This document shows positions 1,894-13,257 of a stretch of 13,257 bases of DNA, piece after piece. The translations under genes were made by a program, and so were the position numbers. The notes below the pieces were generated by a model. The model ran no database searches. It had not been told where the DNA came from and worked only from the letters and a program-made list of their open reading frames with translations. Origin of the DNA: Candidatus Undinarchaeales archaeon. Lineage in GTDB: Archaea; SpSt-1190; JASMDC01. The stretch covers positions 1-13,257 of the forward strand of contig JASMDC010000063.1 in assembly GCA_030753015.1 (NCBI GenBank), given 5' to 3'. The first letter of the stretch is position 1. Every line of letters begins with the position of its first letter.

Positions 1894-1984
1894 ACTTTGA
1901 ACCGATAGGTTCCCTGCCCCTGCATATGCGGGGTGGGAATGATCACAATTGGGTGCCAATGAGGACGCCGTTCGGGCATAGCCA

Positions 1985-1991
1985 TTTAAAA
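1985..1991 (+). promoter_or_regulatory. Archaeal TATA box (TTTAAAA), probably driving a leaderless transcript of the zinc-ribbon/KaiC/HK/RR operon
   Basis: Lies 22-28 nt upstream of ATG 2013, the spacing expected for leaderless archaeal mRNA. Confidence 0.6.
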
Positions 1992-2012: not shown

Positions 2013-2708
2013 ATGGGTGACGTGGAGCCGGATGTGCTTTCCATTCTCGCGTTCGTGAGACAGAACCACGAGATCGCACCCACATCGGACACCAAGTTTC
2101 ATTACCCGGAGATAGAGACGCTGCTCGACACGACCGCGGAACGTGTACAAGAGATCCTGGCCGAGATGGAGAGCAAGGACCTCCTCAGGCATCTCGAGGA
2201 GTCGACGTCCGTCGGTTGCCCGAACTGCAGCTCGCTTTCGCTTCTCAGGCAGAACATATGCCCCATCTGCTCGAGCGACCAGATCGAGGTCCAGAACGAG
2301 GCAACGGGGATGATGGTATGCAGCTCGTGCCAGAACGTGTTCTACTTCCCGGCCACGAGACTCAAGTGCGACAGCTGCGAGACGGTCCTGCCCGAGATCG
2401 GCCTCAGCATGATCACGGCGAACAGCTACGGCATCACCAGCAAGGGCCTCGGGCTTATTTCCGAAAGGAAACAGGAGGGTCAGGAGGATGTGTTCAAGCG
2501 TATGATGGCCTCTATCTTCTTCGCGCTCATCCTCACCTTCACGTTCGCCGTCTACCTCATCTACAAGCAGAAGGGGTTCGTCGACATTTTCATGTTCGTA
2601 CTGTACGGGACGGTCATCCTCTCCTATATGATTACCTCGTACTACATCGGCAAGAGCGGTGTGAGCAACACGGAAGGATCCTCCCTGCCGTCACACAAGA
2701 TCCCCTGA
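2013..2708 (+). CDS. TackOD1-like multi-zinc-ribbon protein with two C-terminal TM helices
   Basis: FHYP...EILAEMESKDLL helical segment, four CxxC knuckles (CPNC, CPIC, CSSC, CDSC), YGITSKG wing-like motif, then two hydrophobic helices. ATG 2013 is preferred over 1926 because of the TATA position. Confidence 0.7.
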   Translation: MGDVEPDVLSILAFVRQNHEIAPTSDTKFHYPEIETLLDTTAERVQEILAEMESKDLLRHLEESTSVGCPNCSSLSLLRQNICPICSSDQIEVQNEATGMMVCSSCQNVFYFPATRLKCDSCETVLPEIGLSMITANSYGITSKGLGLISERKQEGQEDVFKRMMASIFFALILTFTFAVYLIYKQKGFVDIFMFVLYGTVILSYMITSYYIGKSGVSNTEGSSLPSHKIP

Positions 2709-2718
2709 GAGTGATACC

Positions 2719-3414
2719 ATGGCTATCAAAAGGTTGACGTCCGGTGTTCCCGGCCTTGACAAGATGATCGAGGGAGGGTTCGTTAAGGGTTCGAGCGTTC
2801 TGCTCTCCGGTACACCGGGGTCCGGCAAGACAACGCTCGCCATGCAGTTCCTGATCGAGGGAGCGTTGAACGCAGGAGAGCCCAGCATTTTCATCAGCTT
2901 CGAGGAGGGGCTCGAGCTCATACGTGAGAACTTCATACGCTTCGGATGGAGCATCGATGATCTGGAACGACAGGGCAAGCTGGTCCTGGTGCAGAAGGAC
3001 GCGACGCTGGTGGGGGCGCTCCTGGAAAACGAGCTCGGCCAACTGCAGGAGATCCTGGAGAGGGTGGGTGCCAAACGTGTGGTCATCGACTCCGTGAGCG
3101 TTATGAACGAGAGCTCGGACAAGGTCGACCGGCAGACGCTCGCCCAGCTCGTGGACTTCCTGCGGTCGAAGGGATGCACGACACTCTTCATCCATGAGCG
3201 GAGCGTCGCAGCAGTCGATGAGATCAAGTACGAAGCGATCGACTTCCTCTTCGACGGTATCATACTCCTTAGCAGGATGCGGACGGGCAACTCCTTCCGC
3301 CAGATCCTGAGAGTACCGAAGATGCGCTACACGAAGATCATGCCCAAGATCGTTCCTGTGCAGATATCGGACAAGGGTGTGGCCGTGTACCCTGAGATGT
3401 CCGTCTTCGAATAG
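2719..3414 (+). CDS. Single-domain KaiC-like (RAD55/KaiC family) RecA-fold ATPase
   Basis: RLTSGVPGLDKMIEGG N-terminus, Walker A GTPGSGKT, catalytic SFEE, Walker B RVVIDS, DGIILL and KMR finger motif. Confidence 0.93.
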   Translation: MAIKRLTSGVPGLDKMIEGGFVKGSSVLLSGTPGSGKTTLAMQFLIEGALNAGEPSIFISFEEGLELIRENFIRFGWSIDDLERQGKLVLVQKDATLVGALLENELGQLQEILERVGAKRVVIDSVSVMNESSDKVDRQTLAQLVDFLRSKGCTTLFIHERSVAAVDEIKYEAIDFLFDGIILLSRMRTGNSFRQILRVPKMRYTKIMPKIVPVQISDKGVAVYPEMSVFE

Positions 3415-3415
3415 G

Positions 3416-5575
3416 ATGAAGCATGAGGTGTCCGCTATCGCGGGAAATGAACGGACCACACTGGAGCTCGCTCAGGAGGAGCTGCGCAAGAGCGAGGAGC
3501 GCACCCGGTCCATCATCGACGTCATCCCCGACCTGATGTTCCAGATTCACAAGGACGGCACCTTTCTGAGCTACAAGGGGGGACGAGAGGACCTGTATGC
3601 ACAACCGGAGCTGTTCCTGGGCAAGAAGGTCCAGGACGTGCTCCCGAAGGACCTCGCCGCCCTGACTATGCGCCATGTGAAACTCGCCCTCGATAGCGGC
3701 GAAAAACAGTCCTACGAGTACGATCTCCCGATCAATGGCCAGGTGTGCAGCTTCGAGTCACGCATGGTCAAGAGCGGGGTGGACGAGGTCGTCGCCGTCG
3801 TGCGCGACATCACCGAGCGGAAGAGGACGGAGGAGAGCGTGCAGCAGGTGGCCGATGAATGGAGCTCGACCTTCGACTCGATCTCGGACCTGATATCAAT
3901 CCAGAGCACGGATTGCAGGCTCATCCGCGTCAACAAGGCCTACGCCGACGCCTTCGGGATGGAGCCAGAGGAACTGGCTGGCAAGCGATGCTTCGGGGTG
4001 GTCCATGGATCGAAAGAGCCTACTCCGGATTGTCCCATGTGCAACGTGCTAGAGGATAAGGAGCCGTTCACGGTGGAGTTCTTCGAACCGCACATTGGGG
4101 CTCATCTGGAGGTGTCGGTCTCACCGATACTGGATGAGAAGGGGGAGGTCGCCAGGGTCGTGCACATCGCAAAGGACATCACAGAGCGCAAGAAGATGGA
4201 GGAGGAGCTGGATGAACACCGACGGAACTTAGAGGTGAGGGTGGCCGAACGGACCGAGGACCTCAACGAGGCCGTCGAGCGTCAAGAAAAGGAGGTCGAG
4301 GAGCGCTCCCGGGCCCAGAACGAGGTACGTTTTATACAGTCCCTGACTTTGACCATAAGCGATGCCGGGGACCTAAGGACCGCACTGTGTGCGGTCCTCG
4401 AAAAGGTGTGTGTTGACACGGGGTGGAACCTCGGTGAGATATGGTCGCACGGTACCGATGGGGAACTGGGATGGTCCGACGTTTGGTACCACTCCAATAA
4501 GGGGATGACGCGATGGAGGAATGAATCCAAGGAGGTGACCTTTCGAGAAGGGGAAGGGCTTCCAGGGATATGCTGGTCCTCAAGGGAACCCGTCCTTTTC
4601 CACGACATCAGCTGTGATCCGAGGTTCATTCGAGGCGAACTCGCAAGAGCGTTCAAGTTACGGGGCGGTGTTGCTGTACCTGTACTGATGGAGGACGATG
4701 TGCTGACCGTCCTGACGTTCTTCAAGTATAACCCTCTTGAGGAGGAGGACGAACGCTGGGCCCAGCTCGTCTTTTCGAGCGTGTCCCAACTCAAGACGAT
4801 CATTGAGCGCAAACGAGCCGAGGATGAACTTCGTGGGACCCAGGAAGAGCTGATCCAGTCCGAGAAGATGGCCTCCCTAGGGTTGCTGGTGGCCGGCGTT
4901 GCACACGAGGTGAACAATCCGCTTGCGTTCCTCAGATCGAATTCGGAGTCCATTGTGGACAAGATAGAGACGATCAATGAACAAGTAGATGCGAGCGAGG
5001 CCGTGGATACCATGGCCCTCGATGGTATAGGGGCCATGGCCCGCACGAACTTGAGGGGGATCGACAGGATCGCCGACATCACAAGGACCCTGAAGCGGTT
5101 CGCCGCACCCGACGCCGGGGAAATGTCACCTTCGGACGTCAACCAGGGGATACGGGACACGCTGCTCATGGTGCACAACCAGCTGAAGCACCATGTCACC
5201 GTTCACGAGGAATACGGGGACGTACCAAAGGTGGTCGGGCGCATCGGCCAGCTGAACCAGGTGTTCATGAACATGATCCTCAACGCTTCGCAGGCCATGG
5301 AGAAAGGAAACATATGGGTGCGAACGCGGGAGCGGTCCGGCAACGTCTACGTGGAGGTACGTGACGACGGAGAGGGGATCGCCGATGAGGACCTCGACAG
5401 GTTGTTCGATCCATTCTTCACTACGAAGGACGATGGGACCGGCCTCGGGCTCAGTACGTGCTATCGCATCATCCAAGAGCATGGTGGTTCCATCAAGGTG
5501 AAGAGCACCAAGGGGAAGGGTGCGACCTTCACCATATGCATCCCGGTAGGTGAACGAAATGAGCGAAAGAGATGA
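3416..5575 (+). CDS. Soluble sensor histidine kinase 1 (PAS-PAS-coiled coil-GAF-HisKA-HATPase)
   Basis: Two PAS/PAC units ending in DITERK; GAF (GEGLPG...DPRF...VAVPV); H-box HEVNNPL, N-box QVFMNMILNA, G1 DDGEGI, F-box FDPFFTTK, G2 GTGLGL; no TM segment. ATG 3416 sits immediately after the KaiC stop. Confidence 0.93.
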   Translation: MKHEVSAIAGNERTTLELAQEELRKSEERTRSIIDVIPDLMFQIHKDGTFLSYKGGREDLYAQPELFLGKKVQDVLPKDLAALTMRHVKLALDSGEKQSYEYDLPINGQVCSFESRMVKSGVDEVVAVVRDITERKRTEESVQQVADEWSSTFDSISDLISIQSTDCRLIRVNKAYADAFGMEPEELAGKRCFGVVHGSKEPTPDCPMCNVLEDKEPFTVEFFEPHIGAHLEVSVSPILDEKGEVARVVHIAKDITERKKMEEELDEHRRNLEVRVAERTEDLNEAVERQEKEVEERSRAQNEVRFIQSLTLTISDAGDLRTALCAVLEKVCVDTGWNLGEIWSHGTDGELGWSDVWYHSNKGMTRWRNESKEVTFREGEGLPGICWSSREPVLFHDISCDPRFIRGELARAFKLRGGVAVPVLMEDDVLTVLTFFKYNPLEEEDERWAQLVFSSVSQLKTIIERKRAEDELRGTQEELIQSEKMASLGLLVAGVAHEVNNPLAFLRSNSESIVDKIETINEQVDASEAVDTMALDGIGAMARTNLRGIDRIADITRTLKRFAAPDAGEMSPSDVNQGIRDTLLMVHNQLKHHVTVHEEYGDVPKVVGRIGQLNQVFMNMILNASQAMEKGNIWVRTRERSGNVYVEVRDDGEGIADEDLDRLFDPFFTTKDDGTGLGLSTCYRIIQEHGGSIKVKSTKGKGATFTICIPVGERNERKR

Positions 5576-6488
5576 GGACATGGTACACGACATCCTGGTC
5601 GTGGACGACGAGAGGGACGTGCTGGAAGCGCTCCGCATTACACTCGCGGACGCAAAGCGATTCAGGAGCAAGACCACACTGGTATGCAATGCCGAGGAGG
5701 CGCTCGCAGAGCTTGATAAGCGCGAGTTCTCGCTTGTCATCTCGGATTATAAGATGCCCGGGATGAACGGCGTGGACCTGCTGGCAGCGGTACGCGAGCG
5801 ACATCCCCGGACCATGCGTGTGCTCATCACCGGTTACTCGGACGTCGCCATCGCCCGGGAGGCCATCAACCGGGCGAAGGTTGACCACTACGTGGAGAAG
5901 CCATGGGATAACAAGGCGCTCAGGGAAATCGTCAAGGGCCTGCTTTCCCTCCACGCCTACCGGAGGTCCCCTGACCTCTCACCAAGCACCGAGAGGGCCA
6001 TGGACACCGACCAGCGCTTCTCGCTGGAGCCGGGATTCATCTATAAGGTGTCGGAGAGGAAGGGTGAGAGGAGCTTCGAGATCCTTTCGGACCTCGTGAC
6101 CCATGGTCATCAGGGCCTTGTCATCACCATACAATCCCCCGAAGTGCTCAGGAAGAAGTACGGATTCGAGAACACGCGCATCCTGTATCTTGGAAAGGAG
6201 AAGCATGGGGGCGAGTGGGTCGACGCGAGCGACCTGATATCAATCGGTATCCTCATTCGGGACTTCCTAGAGGATGCAGAGAACGGGGTCGTGGTCCTGG
6301 ACGGTATCGAATACCTTATCACTTCATTCAGCTTCGAGACGATAATCAAGCTCATCCAGAACCTGTACGAGTTCAACACATTCAACCGTTCGCTCATAAT
6401 AATACCCGTCAATCCCAATGCTCTGGACAGGAAGGAGATGGCGATACTCGAGCGGTACGCCGAACCAGTCGAGGAAGGCAGGGACTGA
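5559..6488 (+). CDS. Response regulator 1: REC + DUF835 (inactive KaiC-like) output domain
   Basis: REC motifs ILVVDDE, ISDYKMP, LITG, EKPW. C-terminal domain has PGFIY...GLVIT..P...VVVLDGIEYL and no Walker A. SD GGTGA (5549-5553) before ATG 5559, overlapping the HK1 end. Confidence 0.88.
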   Translation: MSERDEDMVHDILVVDDERDVLEALRITLADAKRFRSKTTLVCNAEEALAELDKREFSLVISDYKMPGMNGVDLLAAVRERHPRTMRVLITGYSDVAIAREAINRAKVDHYVEKPWDNKALREIVKGLLSLHAYRRSPDLSPSTERAMDTDQRFSLEPGFIYKVSERKGERSFEILSDLVTHGHQGLVITIQSPEVLRKKYGFENTRILYLGKEKHGGEWVDASDLISIGILIRDFLEDAENGVVVLDGIEYLITSFSFETIIKLIQNLYEFNTFNRSLIIIPVNPNALDRKEMAILERYAEPVEEGRD

Positions 6489-6513
6489 CCGACCGGTGCC
6501 CCTTCGTGCCAGG

Positions 6514-6535
6514 GAATAACGCTTAAGTAACTTAA
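6514..6535 (+). promoter_or_regulatory. Putative BRE/TATA promoter for the second HK-RR cassette
   Basis: GAATAAC-GCTTAAGTA in the intergenic gap; TTAAGT-A-ACTTAA (6523-6535) is also a perfect inverted repeat. Confidence 0.5.
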
Positions 6536-6655
6536 TGGATTGGGGCTGCACAGGGAAGAGACAGACGTGAGGATGGGCTGTGGGATTCTCCGCTTGCGTT
6601 GATGCCATCGCGACCCCCTATCTCATCCGTTCCCCTTCCCTGCCTGGGTGAAGGA

Positions 6656-8590
6656 TTGAGCGAGCAAGTAGATTCGCTGCCAGAGCGTCAGAAGGAAACG
6701 CTCGACGGAAAGAGCGCTCTAACGCAGTCCATCCTCGACGCGATGCCCGACCTGATGTTCCAGATCCGGAAGGACGGCACCTTCCTTAGCTACAAGGGGG
6801 GGGTGGACGAGCTGTACGCCCCTCCTGAGCAGTTCCTGGGGAAGAAGATCCACGAGGTGCTGCCCAAGAATCTCGCCGACCTGACGATGCGGAATATGAA
6901 GGCCGCTCTCGGTAATGGCGGGACGCAGACGTACGAGTACGAGCTGCCCATCAGCGACGAGACGCGATACTTCGAGTCGCGGATGGTCAAGAGCGGGACG
7001 GACGAGGTCGTCGCCGTCGTGCGCGACATCACCGAGAGGAAGAGGAACGAGCGTGAGATCCAAAGCTCCGAGGAGCGGCTCAAGGTAATCTTCGAACACG
7101 CTCCCGACGGATACTTCGTAAGCGACTTCAAGGGATACTTTACAGACGGGAACAAGGCCACTGAGGAGATCTGTGGCTTCAAGCGTGAGGACATCATCGG
7201 TACCAACATCCTGAGGAACTGTCCGATCGTACCCATTGACCAGGTACCTCTGGTGGCCAAGATACTTGCTCAGAACATCAAGGGGAAGTCCACGGGACCC
7301 GACGAGCTGGAGATCGTGCGCAAGGACGGAAAAAGGCACATGGTCGAGGTTAAGACGCTGGTCATGGAGATCAAGGGTGAGCCACGCGTGCTGGGAATCG
7401 TAAGGGACATCCACGAGCGCAAGGTGGCCGAAGCCCAGGTACGCGAGTACCAGGAACAGCTGACCTCCATCTTCCAGACCGTCCGGGACGGCCTTGCTCT
7501 CATCGACCTCTCTGGCGCCATACTGCGCGTCAATAAGGCGTTCGCCACCATCTCGGCCTACAAGGAGGACGAGCTCGTTGGTAAGCAGATCCACAAGCTG
7601 GAGATGTTCTCGAAGGCAGGGCGTGCACAGCTCATGACGGGATACGCCAAGATGCGGCTCGGCCGCCGGACACCTGCCTTCGAGCTAGAAGCGAGCAGGA
7701 AGGGCGGCGAGCGGTTCCACCTCGAGGTATCGGCCGATCCGATCAAGAAGGAGGGAGTGGTGGTCGGGATGGCGGTGTCGCTCAAGGACATCACCGACCG
7801 CAAGAGCCTGGAGGGAGAACTGCGAGAGCACGCAAAGAACCTGGAGGACGATGTACGGGCACGTACCAACGAGATGATCCAGTCGGAGAAGATGGCCTCG
7901 ATAGGGCTTCTTGTCGCAGGAGTGGCCCACGAGGTGAACAATCCCCTGGCGTTCATCAAGTCCAACTCCGAGGACATGCAAGAGGATATCGAGAATGTCC
8001 TGGAGAAGGTCAGCAAGAAAGGAGACGTTGATACGGAACTGCTGGACGAGGTCGACGCGCTCATCGAGACCAATCTCAAGGGTATCGACCGGATAGCGGA
8101 AATAACCAAGACGCTGAAGCGGTTCGCGCGCCCGGAGACGACCGAGATGGTGCCGTCGGACATCAACCAGGGGATACAGGACACGCTGGTCATGGTCCAC
8201 AACAAGATCAAGTACAGGGTCGAGGTCCTCGGGGACTATGGCGAGGTCCCCGCGGTGATGGGACACATCGGCCAGCTGAACCAGGTCTTCATGAACATCA
8301 TACTCAACGCGTCACAAGCAATGGACAAGGGTAACGTATGGGTCCGGACTTGGCATAAAGACGGCAATGTCATGGTGGAGATCCGCGACGATGGCAAGGG
8401 GATCCCGGAGAAGGACCTCGGCCGGATATTCGATCCCTTCTTCACGACGAAGGAGGGGGGGACAGGGCTCGGGCTCAGTGCGTGCTACAGGATCGTGCAG
8501 GAACACAACGGTTCCATTGATGTGAGGAGCACGGTAGGGAAGGGAACTGCTTTTACGATAACTTTACCGGTGGGTGGAAGGAATGGATGA
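6656..8590 (+). CDS. Soluble sensor histidine kinase 2 (PAS-PAS-PAS-HisKA-HATPase)
   Basis: Three PAS/PAC units (ending DITERK, DIHERK, DITDRK); HEVNNPL, QVFMNIILNA, DDGKGI, FDPFFTTK, GTGLGL. TTG 6656 follows SD GGTGA (6647-6651); the track start at 6599 is an alternative. Confidence 0.92.
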   Translation: MSEQVDSLPERQKETLDGKSALTQSILDAMPDLMFQIRKDGTFLSYKGGVDELYAPPEQFLGKKIHEVLPKNLADLTMRNMKAALGNGGTQTYEYELPISDETRYFESRMVKSGTDEVVAVVRDITERKRNEREIQSSEERLKVIFEHAPDGYFVSDFKGYFTDGNKATEEICGFKREDIIGTNILRNCPIVPIDQVPLVAKILAQNIKGKSTGPDELEIVRKDGKRHMVEVKTLVMEIKGEPRVLGIVRDIHERKVAEAQVREYQEQLTSIFQTVRDGLALIDLSGAILRVNKAFATISAYKEDELVGKQIHKLEMFSKAGRAQLMTGYAKMRLGRRTPAFELEASRKGGERFHLEVSADPIKKEGVVVGMAVSLKDITDRKSLEGELREHAKNLEDDVRARTNEMIQSEKMASIGLLVAGVAHEVNNPLAFIKSNSEDMQEDIENVLEKVSKKGDVDTELLDEVDALIETNLKGIDRIAEITKTLKRFARPETTEMVPSDINQGIQDTLVMVHNKIKYRVEVLGDYGEVPAVMGHIGQLNQVFMNIILNASQAMDKGNVWVRTWHKDGNVMVEIRDDGKGIPEKDLGRIFDPFFTTKEGGTGLGLSACYRIVQEHNGSIDVRSTVGKGTAFTITLPVGGRNG

Positions 8591-9506
8591 AGAAACGGAA
8601 GGGACCAGCTACAAGATCTTGATAGTGGACGACGACGTGGACGTCCTCAGGGCCCTTGAGCGGAACCTGACTAGGGCCAAGGATTTCAAGAGTGTCGTCG
8701 AAACGGCCAACAACGGCGAAGAGGCGCTCACGAAGTTGGCTGCACAGGAGTTCGCTCTCGTGATCTCGGACTTCAAGATGCCGGGCATGAGCGGCGTGGA
8801 CCTGTTGAAGCTTGTGAAGGAACGCTATCCTACTACAGTGCGCGCCCTCATCACCGGATATTCCGATGTGTCGATCGCCAGAGATGCTATCAATAGGGCA
8901 AAGATCGACCATTACATGGAGAAGCCCTGGGACCGCGATGAGATCCGTAGTGCGGTCAAGGGATTGCTGGACCTCCACGAGTTCAAGCGTCGTGTCGAGC
9001 TATCACCGGACACCGAGCAGACTGCAGAGGGTGAACAGCAGTTCTCCATGAATCCCGGATTCATCTACATGGTGGAAGAGCGGAAGGGGATGAAGAGCTT
9101 CGAGATCCTCTCCGACCTCGTCACCCATGGTCATGAGGGACTTGGCATCACCATCCAGTCGCCAAAGATCCTGCGACAGAGGTACGGGTTCGAAAAGACA
9201 CGCATCGTCTACATGGGGAAAGAACAGCACGGCGAGGAGTGGGTGGACGCTTCCGATATCGTGGCGATAGGCATCATCATCCGAAACTTCCTCGAAGAGG
9301 CGAAGAACGGTGTCGTCGTCATAGACGGTATCGAGTACCTCATCTCGTGCTTCAGCTTCGATACCATCGTCAAGCTCATCCAGAACCTCTACGAGTTCAA
9401 TACCTTCAACGGCTCGCTGATCATCTTCCCCGTGAATCCGAAAGCTCTTGAGAGGAAGGAGCTTGCGATCCTCGAACGCTACCTCGAGCCTGTCGGAGGT
9501 GAGTGA
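8583..9506 (+). CDS. Response regulator 2: REC + DUF835, paralogue of RR1
   Basis: ILIVDDD, ISDFKMP, LITG, EKPW, VVVIDGIEYL; aligns along its full length with 5559..6488 and overlaps the HK2 stop. Confidence 0.88.
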   Translation: MDEETEGTSYKILIVDDDVDVLRALERNLTRAKDFKSVVETANNGEEALTKLAAQEFALVISDFKMPGMSGVDLLKLVKERYPTTVRALITGYSDVSIARDAINRAKIDHYMEKPWDRDEIRSAVKGLLDLHEFKRRVELSPDTEQTAEGEQQFSMNPGFIYMVEERKGMKSFEILSDLVTHGHEGLGITIQSPKILRQRYGFEKTRIVYMGKEQHGEEWVDASDIVAIGIIIRNFLEEAKNGVVVIDGIEYLISCFSFDTIVKLIQNLYEFNTFNGSLIIFPVNPKALERKELAILERYLEPVGGE

Positions 9507-9508
9507 AC

Positions 9509-12112
9509 ATGAGCTTCCTCCTGGACCCACCGCTCCTGTTCGCCATGGGTTTCCTCGTCCACCTCTTGGGGAAGGCCCTCGGATGGGAGCGACGTGCCAA
9601 GATCGCCCTCGGTACGGGTGTGGTGGTGCTGTTCTGGGCGGTGAGCTCGCTCCTGTACCTGGACGTGCTGGGCTGCGTATTCCCGTGCTTCTGCTACGGT
9701 GTGACGTTGCTCCCGACAACAGTGTGTCATCAGGGGACACCTCCCGACGCCGCCACGTTCATGGTTTCGGGCGTGCCCTGGGTACCGTTCGTGGGGAACG
9801 TGCCGCCCTGGGCCGCGGCCGCGCTCTTCCTCCTCTACATCATCTGGGTGTTCATCGGGTACGACCTTGCGCTCAAGTTCACGAAGCGCAGGGTGAGCGA
9901 CGGGTCCGGATATATCTTCATCCTGGTCCTCTTCCCCTTGTGGACGCTCCTCGGTTACTGGGTCTCGGCGGAGGTAGGGGCTGCCGTCGGACCACCACTC
10001 GCCAACCTCCTGAACTATCTCCTGCGGACACAGATAACGACGGGCATCGGCTTCTCCAAGACCCTCCAGTTCGTGCTCAATCCGCTTTGTCTGGTCCTCG
10101 GCTACGCACTGGCACTATGGAGGACGGCTCCTCAGCCTGCCACCGGTCAGGTCTACAGCAAGGACGATGTCAAGAGCACCGGGCTCGACCTGGGCGACAC
10201 CCAGTTCGCGGTCGCCCGGGACGAGGATGCCGTGAAGTGCGTCCAGCAGGCCATCAAGGGACTCGGTACCAAGTGCGAGTGGATCGACGACAACGGCACT
10301 GCCGAGGACGCGATGAAGCATGTTGTCAAGGACGGGGACAGGGTCCTCATCAAGGTGAACATCTGCGGCGGTGTCGCCCAGCGAAAGGGTACCTGGACCT
10401 CGACCGACGTCGCCGGTGAGGTCGTCAGACTGGTGAAGGCCGCCGGCGGGAAGCCCTTCGTGTGCGATGCGGACATGATCTGGACCCACTTCTGGCCCGC
10501 GGCGGAGTTCAAAGGCTGGAAGCAGTGGGCCGAGGACAATGATGTCGAGCTCGTGAACCTGTCCGAGACCGATCGTGTGAGGTTCGACTTCGGTCTGGAT
10601 AGCCACTCCTGGGAAGTGGACGTCTCTAAAGAGATCGTCGAGGCCGACGTCATCATAACCGTTCCTGTGATGAAGACGCACGTGCTCACGGGAATCACCA
10701 TCGCCATGAAGAACATGTACGGCACCTATCCGCAGGTCGACAAGGCGATGTTCCATAAGAAGGGCATCGAGGATGTCATCTACTACGTGAACAAGGCGTT
10801 CACTCCCAACCTCGCCATCATCGACGGGAGCATCGGCGGGGAGGGGCAGGGACCGCTCACAGCGGACGATGTCAACTACCAGACCATCATCGCGTCGAAC
10901 GACGTGGTCTGTGCCGATGCCATCGCCTGCAGGATAATGGGTTACGATCCGCTTGAGGACATCATCCATCTTCGGTTGGCCCACGAGAGGAACCTAGGTG
11001 ACGGATCAGTGGACTTCGACCTCGATGAACTGCCCTATCCCCATCCAAAGGATGGGAACTGGAGGCGTCCGGACACTGATGTGTTCAGCTTCTATAACAG
11101 GTTCACCGAGGGCGTGCTCAATCTTCCCGTGCTCGGACCCCTGTTCAAGAGCTTCTTCAACATGGGCGCCGACTTCCTCATGTACGACACGGCCAAGCTT
11201 CCCACTATCGGGTACGTAACGCCCGGAGTGCTGACCGCCGTGCACGACGGATTCGACTGGGCGCTCGAAGGTCAGGAGGACACCGGTCCGGACGATAGAA
11301 GGAGGTGGAACAACACGTACATCCTCGCGTTCGTCGCCATCCTCTCCCTGGTCCTGTTCGTCCTGGACGGGTACGTGAGCCTCCTTACAGCTTTCCTTGT
11401 CCTCAACTTCGCCGGGTTCCTGGTGCTGGCATGGGTGATGGGTATCTGGATGGAGACAACGTCCTACATGGTGCTGATAGGGATCTCGGCGCTCTTGGGC
11501 TTCGTGCTCGAGTCCATCACGCCATCGGGCGGGATGTGGACCTATGCCAACGGGCTCATGCCCCCTCTGTCCGCGGTGCCCACCTGGGCCGTGCTCATGA
11601 CATCCATCTTCGCTCTCACGAGCGCGGTCGCTCCGTACCTCGAGTGGCTGGACGTGTTCAAGCGGCTGAGGAACGGCATCTGGGTGCTCCCTGGTTGGCT
11701 GTGCAGGACGCTACCGTTCCTGCTGGCGTCGGCCGGATTCGTCATCCTCCTACATTGGGAGGGCTACCTCAATCAGGCGCTAACGTCCTTCACCTGGAAG
11801 GCGTTCATCTGGCAGGGGCCGCAGGCGATGTGGGTGGTCTACCTCTATGTCGTGATGTGGCTCTTCGGGTTCTACTATGCACTGAGCCGCTCGATGGAAT
11901 GGAACGCTGCCCTGATGGTGTCAGGGATCGTCTTCGGCGGATGGATAGAGCTCATCGGCTGGCAGGCAGAGATGTGGTACTACCTCCATAACGGTACCCT
12001 TCCGCTCTTCCTGTGCATCGCGTGGGCGCTCAACGCGTTCGCCGTGCAGGGGCTCGCGTACGTAATCGGTTACGACCTGAAGGATGCTATCGTGAGGGGA
12101 CGCCAGAGCTAG
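9509..12112 (+). CDS. Multi-pass membrane protein with central DUF362 (COG2006-like) domain
   Basis: SD GGAGGTGA (9495-9502) before ATG 9509. About 5 N-terminal hydrophobic segments; DUF362-type motifs GDRVLIKVN, ADVIITVPVMKTH, ITIAMKNMYG, IIDG, D.V.ADAIA..IMG; about 8 C-terminal TM helices. Confidence 0.85.
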   Translation: MSFLLDPPLLFAMGFLVHLLGKALGWERRAKIALGTGVVVLFWAVSSLLYLDVLGCVFPCFCYGVTLLPTTVCHQGTPPDAATFMVSGVPWVPFVGNVPPWAAAALFLLYIIWVFIGYDLALKFTKRRVSDGSGYIFILVLFPLWTLLGYWVSAEVGAAVGPPLANLLNYLLRTQITTGIGFSKTLQFVLNPLCLVLGYALALWRTAPQPATGQVYSKDDVKSTGLDLGDTQFAVARDEDAVKCVQQAIKGLGTKCEWIDDNGTAEDAMKHVVKDGDRVLIKVNICGGVAQRKGTWTSTDVAGEVVRLVKAAGGKPFVCDADMIWTHFWPAAEFKGWKQWAEDNDVELVNLSETDRVRFDFGLDSHSWEVDVSKEIVEADVIITVPVMKTHVLTGITIAMKNMYGTYPQVDKAMFHKKGIEDVIYYVNKAFTPNLAIIDGSIGGEGQGPLTADDVNYQTIIASNDVVCADAIACRIMGYDPLEDIIHLRLAHERNLGDGSVDFDLDELPYPHPKDGNWRRPDTDVFSFYNRFTEGVLNLPVLGPLFKSFFNMGADFLMYDTAKLPTIGYVTPGVLTAVHDGFDWALEGQEDTGPDDRRRWNNTYILAFVAILSLVLFVLDGYVSLLTAFLVLNFAGFLVLAWVMGIWMETTSYMVLIGISALLGFVLESITPSGGMWTYANGLMPPLSAVPTWAVLMTSIFALTSAVAPYLEWLDVFKRLRNGIWVLPGWLCRTLPFLLASAGFVILLHWEGYLNQALTSFTWKAFIWQGPQAMWVVYLYVVMWLFGFYYALSRSMEWNAALMVSGIVFGGWIELIGWQAEMWYYLHNGTLPLFLCIAWALNAFAVQGLAYVIGYDLKDAIVRGRQS

Positions 12113-12200: not shown

Positions 12201-12219
12201 GAAGAAATACCTATTTAAA
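12201..12219 (+). promoter_or_regulatory. BRE-like purine run plus TATA box for the Cys-repeat gene
   Basis: GAAGAAA followed by TATTTAAA; TTTAAA (12214-12219) lies 24-29 nt before ATG 12243. Confidence 0.6.
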
Positions 12220-12242: not shown

Positions 12243-13257
12243 ATGGGAAGAAGCATCATTGGGATCCTGTTCCCAATCTTTATGATCATCACGCTCCTGG
12301 GTGCAGGGGTCGACTGTACGACGGTCGCAGACTGTGGCGGTTCGGACCATCATTGCGAGGGTAACACTCTCGTGCAGAACGTGTGCACGCAAGGTTCTTG
12401 TATGCAGGACTTCCGCCCGTGCGAGAACTCGTACTATGATAACGGTCCAGCAGTGTGTCAGGAGGGTGCGTGCGCTCGTGCCCCTGATGCGCCCGTACCT
12501 ACCACCAGTAGTGGCAGCTGCACGACGGTCTCCGACTGCGGAGGCTCGGACCACCATTGCGAGGGTAACACTCTCGTGCAGAACGTGTGTTCCCAAGGTT
12601 CTTGTATGCAGGACTTCCGTCCGTGCGAGAACTCGTACTATGACAACGGTCCAGCCGTATGTCAGAACGGTGCATGCGCTCGTGCCCCCGACACCGCCGG
12701 GCCGGTGATCAGTGAAAGCGGCTGCACTACGGTCGCTGACTGCGGCGGCTCGGACCACCACTGCGAGGGTAACACTCTCGTGCAGACCGTGTGCACACAA
12801 GGTTCTTGTTCGCTGGACTTCCGTCCCTGCGAGAACTCCTACTACGATAACGGTCCAGCCGTATGTCAGGAGGGTGCGTGCGCGCGTGCTCCCGACTCAG
12901 CGGGTCCTGTCATCGATGACAACAGCTGCACGACGGTCTCCGACTGCGGTGGCTCGGACCACCATTGCGAGGGTAACACGCTAGTGCAGACCGTGTGCTC
13001 CCAGAGTTCCTGTGTGCTCGACTTCCGTCCGTGCGAGAACTCGTACTATGATAATGGCCCCGCCGTATGTCAGAACGGTGCATGCGCTCGTGCTCCCGAC
13101 ACGACCGGGCCGGTGATCAGTGAAAGCGGCTGCACGACCGTCGCTGACTGTGGCGGCTCGGATCACCACTGTGAGGGTAACACACTTGTGCAGACGGTGT
13201 GCTCACAGGGTTCTTGTTCGCTGGACTTCCGTCCGTGCGAGAACTCGTACTACGATA
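12243..13257 (+). CDS. Secreted or surface cysteine-rich tandem-repeat protein (3' end beyond window; absent from supplied ORF track)
   Basis: Manual translation is open to the window end: MGRSIIGILFPIFMIITLLGAGVD (signal-peptide-like), then repeats of CTTV[A/S]DCGGSDHHCEGNTLVQxVCxQxSCxxDFRPCENSYYDNGPAVCQ[E/N]GACARAPD plus a 10-aa linker. Synonymous variation between units supports this frame. Confidence 0.9.
   Translation, partial: MGRSIIGILFPIFMIITLLGAGVDCTTVADCGGSDHHCEGNTLVQNVCTQGSCMQDFRPCENSYYDNGPAVCQEGACARAPDAPVPTTSSGSCTTVSDCGGSDHHCEGNTLVQNVCSQGSCMQDFRPCENSYYDNGPAVCQNGACARAPDTAGPVISESGCTTVADCGGSDHHCEGNTLVQTVCTQGSCSLDFRPCENSYYDNGPAVCQEGACARAPDSAGPVIDDNSCTTVSDCGGSDHHCEGNTLVQTVCSQSSCVLDFRPCENSYYDNGPAVCQNGACARAPDTTGPVISESGCTTVADCGGSDHHCEGNTLVQTVCSQGSCSLDFRPCENSYYD
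12315..13257 (+). repeat. Coding tandem repeat, 204-bp (68-aa) unit, at least 4.6 copies
   Basis: Units begin at 12315, 12519, 12723, 12927 and 13131, an exact 204-bp period with no indels. Confidence 0.96.

Follow-up and report, generated by a model that had tools for sequence, protein, structure and literature searches.

A candidate operon joining KaiC and TackOD1 to duplicated histidine kinase and REC-DUF835 genes and a DUF362 membrane protein in an Undinarchaeota-labelled archaeon

On what do response regulators act, when they contain neither a DNA-binding domain nor a P-loop? The question is raised by a string of genes on the + strand of contig JASMDC010000063.1, analysed here over a window of 13,257 nt. 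The string extends from 2013 to 12112 and encodes, in this order, a TackOD1 protein, a KaiC ATPase, a histidine kinase (HK1), a response regulator (RR1), a second kinase (HK2), a second regulator (RR2) and a DUF362 membrane protein. In an earlier note the genes up to RR2 were read as a system in which two kinases feed inactive KaiC-like regulators, converging on one active KaiC. The strand, position and content of the six genes named there were confirmed. All parts are of known types; signalling between them is only predicted. The best overall explanation, with a probability of about 0.5, is that the string is an operon encoding a signalling pathway based on protein interactions, and the chances appear even that the string is one functional unit, encoding the protein targets of its own regulators.

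Parts and arrangement of the gene string

The first gene (2013..2708, ATG to TGA, + strand), previously described as "Zn-ribbon-TM", encodes 231 aa matching positions 28-138 of the 188-position profile PF18551 (E 4.1e-12; score 46.5 bits, cut-off 32), with four CxxC motifs and two C-terminal hydrophobic/TM helices. Judged from its sequence, the product is a truncated, membrane-anchored TackOD1 protein; its structure matches TackOD1 clusters of the Atlas (TM 0.53), and the corresponding ORF of the sister genome G001 is also of 231 aa. The second gene (2719..3414, + strand) encodes a single-domain KaiC of 231 aa (PF06745, E 2.3e-60), whose PDB sequence matches include KaiC (1.6e-59) and PH0186 (2e-34). 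As claimed earlier, all ATPase motifs are present: Walker A GTPGSGKT at residue 31, FEE at 61 and VVIDS at 121.

Two kinase-regulator pairs follow, all on the + strand. HK1 (3416..5575, starting at ATG) has the Pfam architecture PAS - PAS_4 (Cys-rich) - GAF - HisKA - HATPase_c, the matches being PAS_4 in two stretches, GAF_2, HisKA and HATPase_c; it is soluble, no hydrophobic segment being found by a segment scan, and its H-box is at residue 497, numbered from ATG 3416. RR1 (5559..6488, from ATG 5559 or 5580) combines a receiver (REC, 7.5e-22) with DUF835 (2.9e-26). HK2 (6599..8590, start at 6599 or 6602), a soluble paralogue of HK1, contains three PAS domains, HisKA and HATPase_c, and RR2 (8583..9506) is again a REC-DUF835 protein (6.6e-23 and 1.2e-23). 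The phosphotransfer residues are intact, as had been noted, in both kinases (H-box, N, G1, F, G2) and in both receivers (DD, phospho-Asp, Thr, Lys); Pfam likewise returns no DNA-binding family for RR1 or RR2, in agreement with the earlier reading.

The regulators are 66% identical to each other, and the kinase cores show 66% identity over 250 aa. The N-terminal PAS domains share 79 of 120 residues, while the central sensor domains differ. By their sequences, the two pairs are paralogues derived from a tandem duplication. The tandem layout is not an assembly artefact, because 3788-7029 is matched without a single difference by a contig from the DNA run (X8) of an independent study. The view of the pairs as two input sets did not hold: they are the product of tandem duplication, and the sister species has one pair only. 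The last gene (9503..12112, + strand) encodes a polytopic membrane protein with about 10-11 hydrophobic segments and a central DUF362 (LarA-clan) domain (PF04015, 1.4e-44), its nearest Atlas cluster being a 788-aa archaeal DUF362 protein.

The spacing, as read from the sequence, is operon-like, with 10 nt between TackOD1 and KaiC and 1 nt between the KaiC stop (3414) and the HK1 ATG (3416). HK1 and RR1 either overlap or are 4 nt apart, depending on the RR1 start (5559 or 5580), and there is an 8-nt overlap between HK2 and RR2. The DUF362 gene starts at GTG 9503, overlapping RR2 (stop 9506) by 4 nt, or at ATG 9509, 2 nt past the stop. The only sizeable gap is the 110-nt spacer between RR1 and HK2 (6489..6598, + strand), in which an AT-rich stretch (6522-6538) could be a candidate internal promoter. 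The earlier description of a packed, co-directional unit was thus right as to spacing, but ended the unit too early, since it should reach 12112 and include the DUF362 gene.

A TATA-like box, ATTTAAAA (1984..1991, + strand), is located 21 nt 5' of ATG 2013 and may act as promoter; its distance suggests a start of leaderless type. A similar layout is found at the next unit, where TATTTAAA (12212-12219) lies 23 nt 5' of ATG 12243. An oligo-T run (1887-1893) lies 3' of the stop of the upstream gene. RNA-library contigs map within or around HK1 (3405-3602, 4571-4732, 5238-5373); none of these short contigs crosses a gene junction with 31 letters to either side, and such a library can contain DNA. 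Most likely, as far as can be read from the DNA, 2013-12112 is one operon, in which three pre-existing parts have been joined.

Fold of DUF835 and its association with DUF362

The model of DUF835 (pLDDT 92.4) has as its best PDB match ArlH/FlaH (4yds, E 6.2e-6, TM 0.68), followed by KaiC and RecA, at sequence identities of only 9-19%. Since the model has the KaiC/RecA fold and a GK[ST] P-loop is absent from both RR1 and RR2, the description of DUF835 as an inactivated KaiC-like domain is upheld. Compared profile to profile, DUF835 and KaiC match weakly (probability 2.3%, E 0.02), though in a sensible register. The full-length model of RR2 (pLDDT 81.7, pTM 0.60) shows two folded domains, connected through a helix plus a linker of low confidence at 138-160.

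An association with DUF362, missed in the earlier note, emerges from the rest of the genome, which contains nine DUF362 ORFs and six REC matches in total, and in which four of the five response-regulator proteins carry DUF835. At all three REC-DUF835 loci a DUF362 ORF is found at 0-759 nt, the chance of such an ORF within 800 nt of a random 1-kb gene being 0.010. The three neighbouring DUF362 proteins are not each other's nearest paralogues, and the DUF835 domain from contig C27 belongs to a clade other than that of RR1, RR2 and the regulator of contig C53; for these reasons the adjacency does not stem from one duplicated block. DUF362 was found at none of 80 metagenome DUF835 loci, and is also absent from an HK-REC-REC...DUF835 locus of genome G023, so that the link is confined to the genus in the data examined.

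Candidate targets and competing readings

The intact motifs and the gene order suggest that each kinase phosphorylates its own REC-DUF835 regulator. Because DUF835 has no P-loop and the regulators have no DNA-binding parts, the phosphorylated proteins would have to act through contact with other proteins, the likeliest of which would be products of the string itself. The first choice would be the DUF362 membrane protein, coupled to RR2, since DUF362 adjoins every REC-DUF835 locus of the genome; the RR1 gene is 3 kb away from it. That this protein is a direct target is put forward tentatively, and is compatible with a contact between DUF835 and KaiC. The second choice would be KaiC with its membrane-anchored TackOD1 partner, a pair heading type IV pilus operons elsewhere, which appears here to have been set directly 5' of HK1. 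A direct DUF835-KaiC contact, itself compatible with targeting of DUF362, seems improbable.

The earlier note went further, proposing that phosphorylated REC-DUF835 proteins bind or join the KaiC ring, and that the inputs of the two kinases are integrated by KaiC and passed on to the TackOD1 protein in the membrane. Given the ArlH/KaiC fold of DUF835, a side-by-side contact of ring type is conceivable; the 1 nt between KaiC and HK1 points the same way. The link has some comparative backing: on contig C26 of the present genome a DUF835 and a KaiC gene are divergent, with 67 nt between them; KaiC adjoins DUF835 at six of the 80 metagenome loci, all in one clade of eight, which has a support of only 0.745 and is placed beside the clade of RR1, RR2 and C53; and at locus L112 a KaiC gene and two DUF835 genes form an overlapping string, in that order. 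At most DUF835 loci, however, the link is missing. KaiC was not found near the C27 and C53 loci (two of the three REC-DUF835 loci in the genome), at 74 of the metagenome loci, many of them on short contigs, or within 30 kb of any of the 11 DUF835 genes in G022, G030, G023 and G017. In addition, the adjoining KaiC genes are polyphyletic, coming from more than one lineage, a KaiC-TackOD1 cassette exists without kinase or regulator, and a single HK-RR pair suffices in the sister species. Such convergence on a KaiC ring is considered unlikely.

KaiC and TackOD1 form a separate conserved pair, which recurs in a distant archaeal genus (G023, G177), where it stands at the head of a type IV pilus-like (T2SSE/T2SSF) operon and has no kinase or regulator gene beside it. 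A self-contained cassette of this kind might merely stand upstream of an unrelated two-component/DUF362 unit, transcription being shared and function not. HK-REC...DUF835 units without KaiC, on C27 and at G023 locus L154, agree with mere juxtaposition, as does the conservation of the whole string within one genus only. Against it, KaiC and HK1 are separated by 1 nt, no promoter-like or terminator-like sequence was found, by reading the sequence, at their junction, and neither this contig nor contig C8 of G001 carries a pilus ATPase gene which the cassette could serve. Moreover, G001 retains the order TackOD1-KaiC-HK-RR-DUF362TM, at ~85% DNA identity, despite a deletion that reshaped the kinase genes beside KaiC; the one pair present there has a kinase of chimeric make-up. 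Juxtaposition is rated as rather doubtful. Alternatively, KaiC might lie upstream of the kinases, its state being read by their shared N-terminal PAS, with the REC-DUF835 proteins as outputs. In cyanobacteria KaiC acts on SasA and CikA, and the output pathway continues to RpaA; there, as here, the ATPase goes together with histidine kinases and response regulators. This analogy and the titles of PDB entries 6x61 and 5jwr, among the structural matches, would favour the arrangement, together with the similarity of the first PAS, as opposed to the central sensors, its retention in the chimeric kinase of G001 and the position of KaiC directly 5' of HK1. SasA, however, uses a KaiB-like thioredoxin fold and not PAS to sense KaiC, and Pfam finds no such domain in the present kinases; the present KaiC, moreover, is single-domain. 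This arrangement is very unlikely. The present system also differs from the cyanobacterial pathway in that its regulators lack a DNA-binding domain.

Relation to described systems

Makarova, Galperin and Koonin, in mBio in 2017, are said to have proposed KaiC-like ATPases as archaeal signalling hubs. The present string resembles that proposal in encoding both an active KaiC and inactivated KaiC-like domains, alongside two-component parts, and differs from it in that the KaiC link covers only a minority of DUF835 genes. The Thermoplasmatota, suggested earlier for a synteny search, are the wrong phylum, the lineage being labelled Candidatus Undinarchaeota.

REC-DUF835 ("iKaiC") is a published type of archaeal regulator (Galperin, Makarova, Wolf and Koonin 2018, PMC5847659). 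Table 2 and the related text of that survey give 36 proteins of this kind, from Methanomicrobia and Thermoplasmata, and state that no regulator of the protein-interaction class had been studied experimentally. With those proteins, the present ones share the receiver, the DUF835 output and the neighbouring histidine kinase; they differ in occurring in an Undinarchaeota-labelled lineage, as the main regulator type (4/5), and in their tandem duplication, with KaiC-TackOD1 and DUF362 genes on their flanks.

For archaeal type IV pilus loci, Makarova, Koonin and Albers 2016 (PMC4858521) report KaiC ATPases and double-Zn-ribbon (TackOD1) proteins of arCOG06883. As there, and as in G023 and G177, where T2SSE and T2SSF follow, KaiC adjoins TackOD1; unlike in those two genomes, TackOD1 comes first here, and it is a truncated form with two membrane helices at its end, where G023 TackOD1 has HTH_AsnC. 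The lack of a pilus ATPase gene on the present contig and on C8 is a further difference from pilus loci.

DUF835 shares its fold with ArlH/FlaH (4yds) and with other RecA-fold proteins of weak or lost ATPase activity, and these proteins provide precedents for RecA-like domains acting through protein contacts; ArlH, according to the entry title, binds ATP, whereas DUF835 has no P-loop. Locus L047, which belongs to the same organism, does not widen the conservation of the string beyond the genus; the host is a marine archaeon. The structural matches of DUF835 also include an entry of the E. coli Bcs cellulose-secretion macrocomplex (9fnn_E).

Gene content and transcription

The window is one whole contig (C77) of genome assembly G000, which totals 3.85 Mb in 117 contigs. 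On its + strand, a gene at 946-1860, whose 304-aa product has a single hydrophobic segment at the N terminus, is followed by those for a zinc-ribbon (TackOD1) protein of 231 aa that ends in two membrane helices (2013-2708), a KaiC of 231 aa (2719-3414), histidine kinase HK1 (3416-5575), response regulator RR1 (5559 or 5580 to 6488), a second kinase, HK2 (6599/6602-8590), and a second regulator, RR2 (8583-9506). A membrane protein of 867-869 aa with a central DUF362 domain (9503/9509-12112) and a secreted cysteine-rich repeat protein, which runs off the contig (12243-13257), complete the series.

Pfam searches recovered every domain named in the earlier note, KaiC and the REC-DUF835 architecture of both regulators among them. 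The phosphotransfer residues are intact, as had been claimed: both kinases possess the H, N, G1, F and G2 boxes, and both receivers (PF00072; E 7.5e-22 for RR1, 6.6e-23 for RR2) have the phospho-acceptor set and share the motifs DDE/DDD, ISD[YF]KMP, ITGY and EKPW. Phosphotransfer from each kinase to its neighboring regulator is predicted from gene order and intact motifs. In place of a DNA-binding domain, the regulators carry DUF835 (PF05763), scoring 92.3 bits in RR1 and 83.8 bits in RR2 against a curated cut-off of 33.1; the GK[ST] P-loop is absent from both, in agreement with the Walker A loss originally described. The window KaiC (PF06745, 204.3 bits) has the ATPase motifs attributed to it, namely Walker A GTPGSGKT, the Glu pair FEE and Walker B VVIDS; solved KaiC chains are matched at E 1.6e-59, and K201 and R203 occupy positions that do not vary in the alignment. 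None of the named NCBIfam KaiC equivalogs (KaiC_arch_3, thermo_KaiC_1, circ_KaiC) was reached, the best score being that of TIGR03880, 146.8 bits for a cut-off of 249.45.

The zinc-ribbon protein scores 46.5 bits on the TackOD1 profile (PF18551; cut-off 32), covering positions 28-138 (111/188), and a structure search matches it to TackOD1 clusters. The C-terminal third of the profile is replaced by the two TM helices, and only 4 CxxC were found; the full cysteine set, according to a 2018 census, comprises 5 CXXC + HXXC (PMC5847659). DUF362 (PF04015, LarA clan CL0471) scores 153 bits in the membrane protein, for a cut-off of 24; in PMC11770544, DUF362 and the LarA N-terminal domain are placed in one Pfam clan.

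TackOD1 and KaiC are separated by 10 nt, KaiC and HK1 by 1 nt; HK1 and RR1 overlap or lie 4 nt apart, HK2 and RR2 overlap by 8 nt, and RR2 and the DUF362 gene either overlap by 4 nt or leave a 2-nt gap. A seven-T run follows the gene upstream of TackOD1; ATTTAAAA is located 21 nt upstream of the ATG at 2013, and TATTTAAA 23 nt upstream of the ATG at 12243. At the sequence level, we infer a transcription unit extending over 2013-12112, with an internal promoter possibly located in the 110-nt spacer between RR1 and HK2. A seawater RNA library (run X20) provided seven short contigs, with HK1 covered at 3405-3602, 4571-4732 and 5238-5373; none of the seven bridges genes, so that X20 cannot show co-transcription, and window parts without RNA cover in this run carry no meaning.

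Over 3788-7029 the window is identical to a DNA contig obtained in another study, and the tandem HK-RR arrangement is therefore real. Two joints found in sequencing run X19 (3823>8429 and 5612>8715) were disregarded, having sides shorter than 30 letters. Locus L047 was rejected as independent support for the RR-HK-RR order because, being 99.5-100% identical to the window, it represents the same organism.

Origin and type of the kinase-regulator pairs

The two kinase-regulator pairs arose by duplication, as sequence similarity indicates. Identity is 66% both between RR1 and RR2 and between the kinase cores (over 250 residues), and 79/120 residues are identical in the first PAS domains of HK1 and HK2; the central sensor domains identified by Pfam are unlike, consisting of PAS_4 + GAF in HK1 and of two further PAS domains in HK2. 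In the sister-species genome, G001, the order is 304-aa protein, TackOD1, KaiC, HK, RR, DUF362 protein and repeat protein, with a single kinase-regulator pair. Its kinase has an HK1-like start and an HK2-like continuation, with 79% overall identity to HK2, and its regulator shares 90% identity with RR2 and 68% with RR1. RR1-like proteins are also present in other populations (P0002, P0004 and P0005; P0004 is 87% and P0002 73% identical to RR1), so that the duplication is probably older than the divergence of the two species. One pair was probably lost in G001 through recombination between the repeated PAS-coding segments, a step that we infer.

The structure of the RR2 DUF835 domain was modeled by using 43 sequences, hand-picked from 80 metagenome DUF835 loci and the window so that most of the domain was spanned and near-duplicates were avoided. 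The model (pLDDT 92.4) was compared with the PDB by Foldseek, the top match being ArlH/FlaH (4yds, E 6.2e-6, TM 0.68), followed by the Bcs cellulose-secretion macrocomplex (9fnn_E) and then by RecA and KaiC entries. A weak hhalign alignment of DUF835 to KaiC, of 2.3% probability, pairs ERKGMKSF with Walker A and VVVIDGIEY with Walker B. The modeled structure assigns to DUF835 a RecA/KaiC-like fold which has lost the Walker A loop. In the full-length RR2 model, a helix and a linker of low confidence connect two folded domains.

"DUF835 (iKaiC)" is already an archaeal regulator type: the 2018 census lists 36 REC-DUF835 proteins and reports that none has been characterised by experiment (PMC5847659). 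A search with RR2 among representatives returned mainly receiver-only matches, about a dozen of the best 150 spanning both domains. The architecture is split at 11 of the 80 metagenome loci (L060, L063, L065, L082, L091, L096, L101, L102, L105, L106, L125), a stand-alone receiver gene being immediately followed by a stand-alone DUF835 gene of ~190 aa. DUF835 and TackOD1, which belong to separate genes in the window operon, occur elsewhere on closely related receivers: P0021 and P0022 are REC-TackOD1 regulators, whose receivers share 44-46% identity with the RR1 and RR2 receivers.

Candidate targets of the DUF835 outputs

Receiver domains were matched six times in G000, corresponding to five regulator proteins and one hybrid kinase, and a kinase-core search detected three histidine kinases, three other HATPase_c matches falling outside this count. 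DUF835 is carried by four of the five regulators. With only three kinases and five regulators, the pairings are exhaustively testable in vitro.

A DUF362 gene, a link missed in the earlier note, stands beside every REC-DUF835 locus of G000. In the window the DUF362 membrane protein directly follows RR2; on contig C27 a hybrid HK, a REC-PAS-DUF835 regulator, a 208-aa ORF and DUF362 are found in this order; on contig C53 a DUF362-Fer4 gene precedes REC-DUF835. There are nine DUF362 ORFs in G000, and the chance of finding one within 800 nt of a random 1-kb gene is 0.010. Inheritance of one duplicated block does not explain the adjacency, since the DUF362 neighbors of the three loci are not each other's nearest paralogues and the C27 DUF835 falls in a different clade of the DUF835 tree. 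Two of the three pairs are retained in G001. Outside the genus, DUF362 was found near DUF835 in none of the 80 metagenome loci, nor at the HK-REC-REC...DUF835 locus of G023, a genome of a distant archaeal genus (g20). The adjacency was found in no paper; PMC12423673 matches DUF362 only by way of DUF3623 and is irrelevant. That the DUF362 protein is a direct target of the regulators is a tentative reading, somewhat on the improbable side; the recurrent adjacency is nonetheless a concrete lead on the targets of dead-KaiC outputs.

As to the proposal that both pairs converge on the active KaiC via DUF835, a genomic link to KaiC is present in a subset of DUF835 proteins; it is no general property, and for the window locus it is suggestive at most. 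G000 contains 9 DUF835 genes and, by a profile search, 11 KaiC ORFs, which are found together only in the window and on C26, where the gene for a 1155-aa DUF835 protein is divergent from a KaiC gene, 67 nt away (L002 = G000:C26:38000-52000, 6527-10822). KaiC is absent from the other two REC-DUF835 loci (C27, C53), and the 11 DUF835 genes of four other genomes all lack a KaiC within 30 kb. Among the 80 metagenome loci, six contain KaiC (L100, L103, L110, L112, L114, L115), a lower bound because many of the 80 sit on short contigs. All six fall in one DUF835 clade of eight (support 0.745), whose two other members are on short contigs and which adjoins the clade of C53, RR1 and RR2. A co-evolution test revealed no shared lineage between the KaiC tree and DUF835, the DUF835-adjacent KaiCs not being monophyletic. 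Complex prediction from the KaiC and DUF835-domain alignments scored 0.10, with a mark of 0.32 and without controls, and speaks neither for nor against binding. Direct contact between DUF835 and KaiC is rather unlikely; if real, it would make the window the first case worked out in which the proposed KaiC hub receives two-component input.

The tightest KaiC/DUF835 string seen is at L112:613-3102 (+), where overlapping genes encode KaiC, a stand-alone DUF835 (180 aa) and an X-DUF835 protein (381 aa). In the 1155-aa protein of C26 the C-terminal DUF835 is the sole recognised domain, and on contig C6 of G001 a DUF835 match within a 1155-aa ORF has a KaiC match ~3 kb away. At L031:5250-10400 (labelled Thermoplasmatota) KaiC and DUF362 genes lie 3.6 kb apart, a single case which may be due to chance. 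DUF835 yields ~1000 matches in the phylum of genome G022 (133 genomes).

KaiC and TackOD1 form a cassette of their own. TackOD1 is present in 17 of 121 genomes searched, from 8 genera, and adjoins KaiC in two of these, the window genus and g20 (G023, G177). In G023 an operon on the - strand (L153 = G023:C50:13000-30000, 2644-9158; 37.7% GC over the stretch) comprises KaiC, TackOD1-HTH_AsnC, a T2SSE ATPase, T2SSF, a 184-aa ORF and T2SSF. The pair here clearly heads a type IV pilus-like operon, in line with PMC4858521, which connects arCOG06883 and KaiC ATPases with type IV pilus loci of archaea. KaiC and TackOD1 are adjacent in such loci, as they are in the window, but the window TackOD1 ends in membrane helices and that of G023 in a HTH domain; moreover, unlike pilus loci, neither C77 nor the corresponding G001 contig, C8, has a match to the pilus ATPase T2SSE (PF00437). 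At G000:C55:23055-29920 a KaiC gene lies ~5.4 kb from a T2SSE ATPase gene, and this KaiC may be the pilus- or archaellum-linked KaiC of G000. The architecture of the cyanobacterial clock output (KaiABC-SasA-RpaA) was not found either: its KaiC has two domains, whereas that of the window is single-domain (231 aa); its output kinase has a KaiB-like N-terminal domain, whereas the window kinases start with PAS; and its output regulator binds DNA, whereas the window regulators carry DUF835.

Each part of the string is of a known kind, be it the bacterial-type two-component pair that ends in an iKaiC output, the cassette of KaiC and TackOD1, or the DUF362 protein. New are their union in one string, which the neighborhood lists of the 2017 KaiC hub study may already include, the near-exclusive DUF835 outputs of G000 and the DUF362 adjacency. 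The string is read, at a probability of about 0.5, as one functional unit whose protein targets are encoded in cis. Much more speculative, and quite improbable, is an extension in which dead-KaiC outputs have taken over nearly all two-component signalling in this lineage and REC-DUF835, once phosphorylated, docks on a KaiC-type ring and on the LarA-like DUF362, so that HK input, KaiC ATPase switch and membrane/redox enzyme would form one physical complex. If true, this would be a direct bridge between bacterial-type and archaeal KaiC-type signalling, with DUF362 as the first identified effector. To our knowledge, no REC-DUF835 regulator, TackOD1 protein or DUF362 protein has a tested function, and the compact seven-gene string brings together candidate partners for each of the three. 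Within the paper collection searched, "DUF835" and "TackOD1" each led to the 2018 census alone (PMC5847659); a review (PMC6393860) merely cites the KaiC hub study.

Host lineage and flanking genes

The sequence was found, wholly or partly, in 19 DNA runs, 18 of them carrying a marine, seawater or hydrothermal-vent metagenome label and the other the bare label "metagenome"; together with the RNA run they derive from 11 studies. Assignment of the host to Thermoplasmatota, assumed in the earlier note, is not supported, G001 being labelled Candidatus Undinarchaeota archaeon. The phylum is represented in the collection by 17 species genomes, 15 of which measure 0.6-1.2 Mb, against 3.6-3.85 Mb for this genus. 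The genus is either a large-genome outlier of a DPANN-type phylum or the product of a classification or binning problem. G000 and G001 have ~99% completeness and ~5% contamination.

Upstream of the operon, cold-shock-domain genes are arranged in tandem (3-320 and 497-697, +), the second encoding a complete 66-aa CSD (PF00313, E 8e-19). Contigs from one RNA run and one DNA run contain a joint which goes back 377 nt (from 597 to 221), the pattern that a tandem repeat or copy-number variation would give.

The protein encoded at 12243-13257 is made up of cysteine-rich repeats recurring every ~200 nt (~68 aa), which contain ...DCGGSDHHCEGNTL...CENSYYDNGPAVC..., and has no match to a Pfam family. 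The G001 copy (L001:16297-19194) extends over at least 966 aa and includes many copies of the repeat. A TATA-like box precedes the window gene at 12212-12219, and RNA-library contigs cover the gene at 12315-12959.
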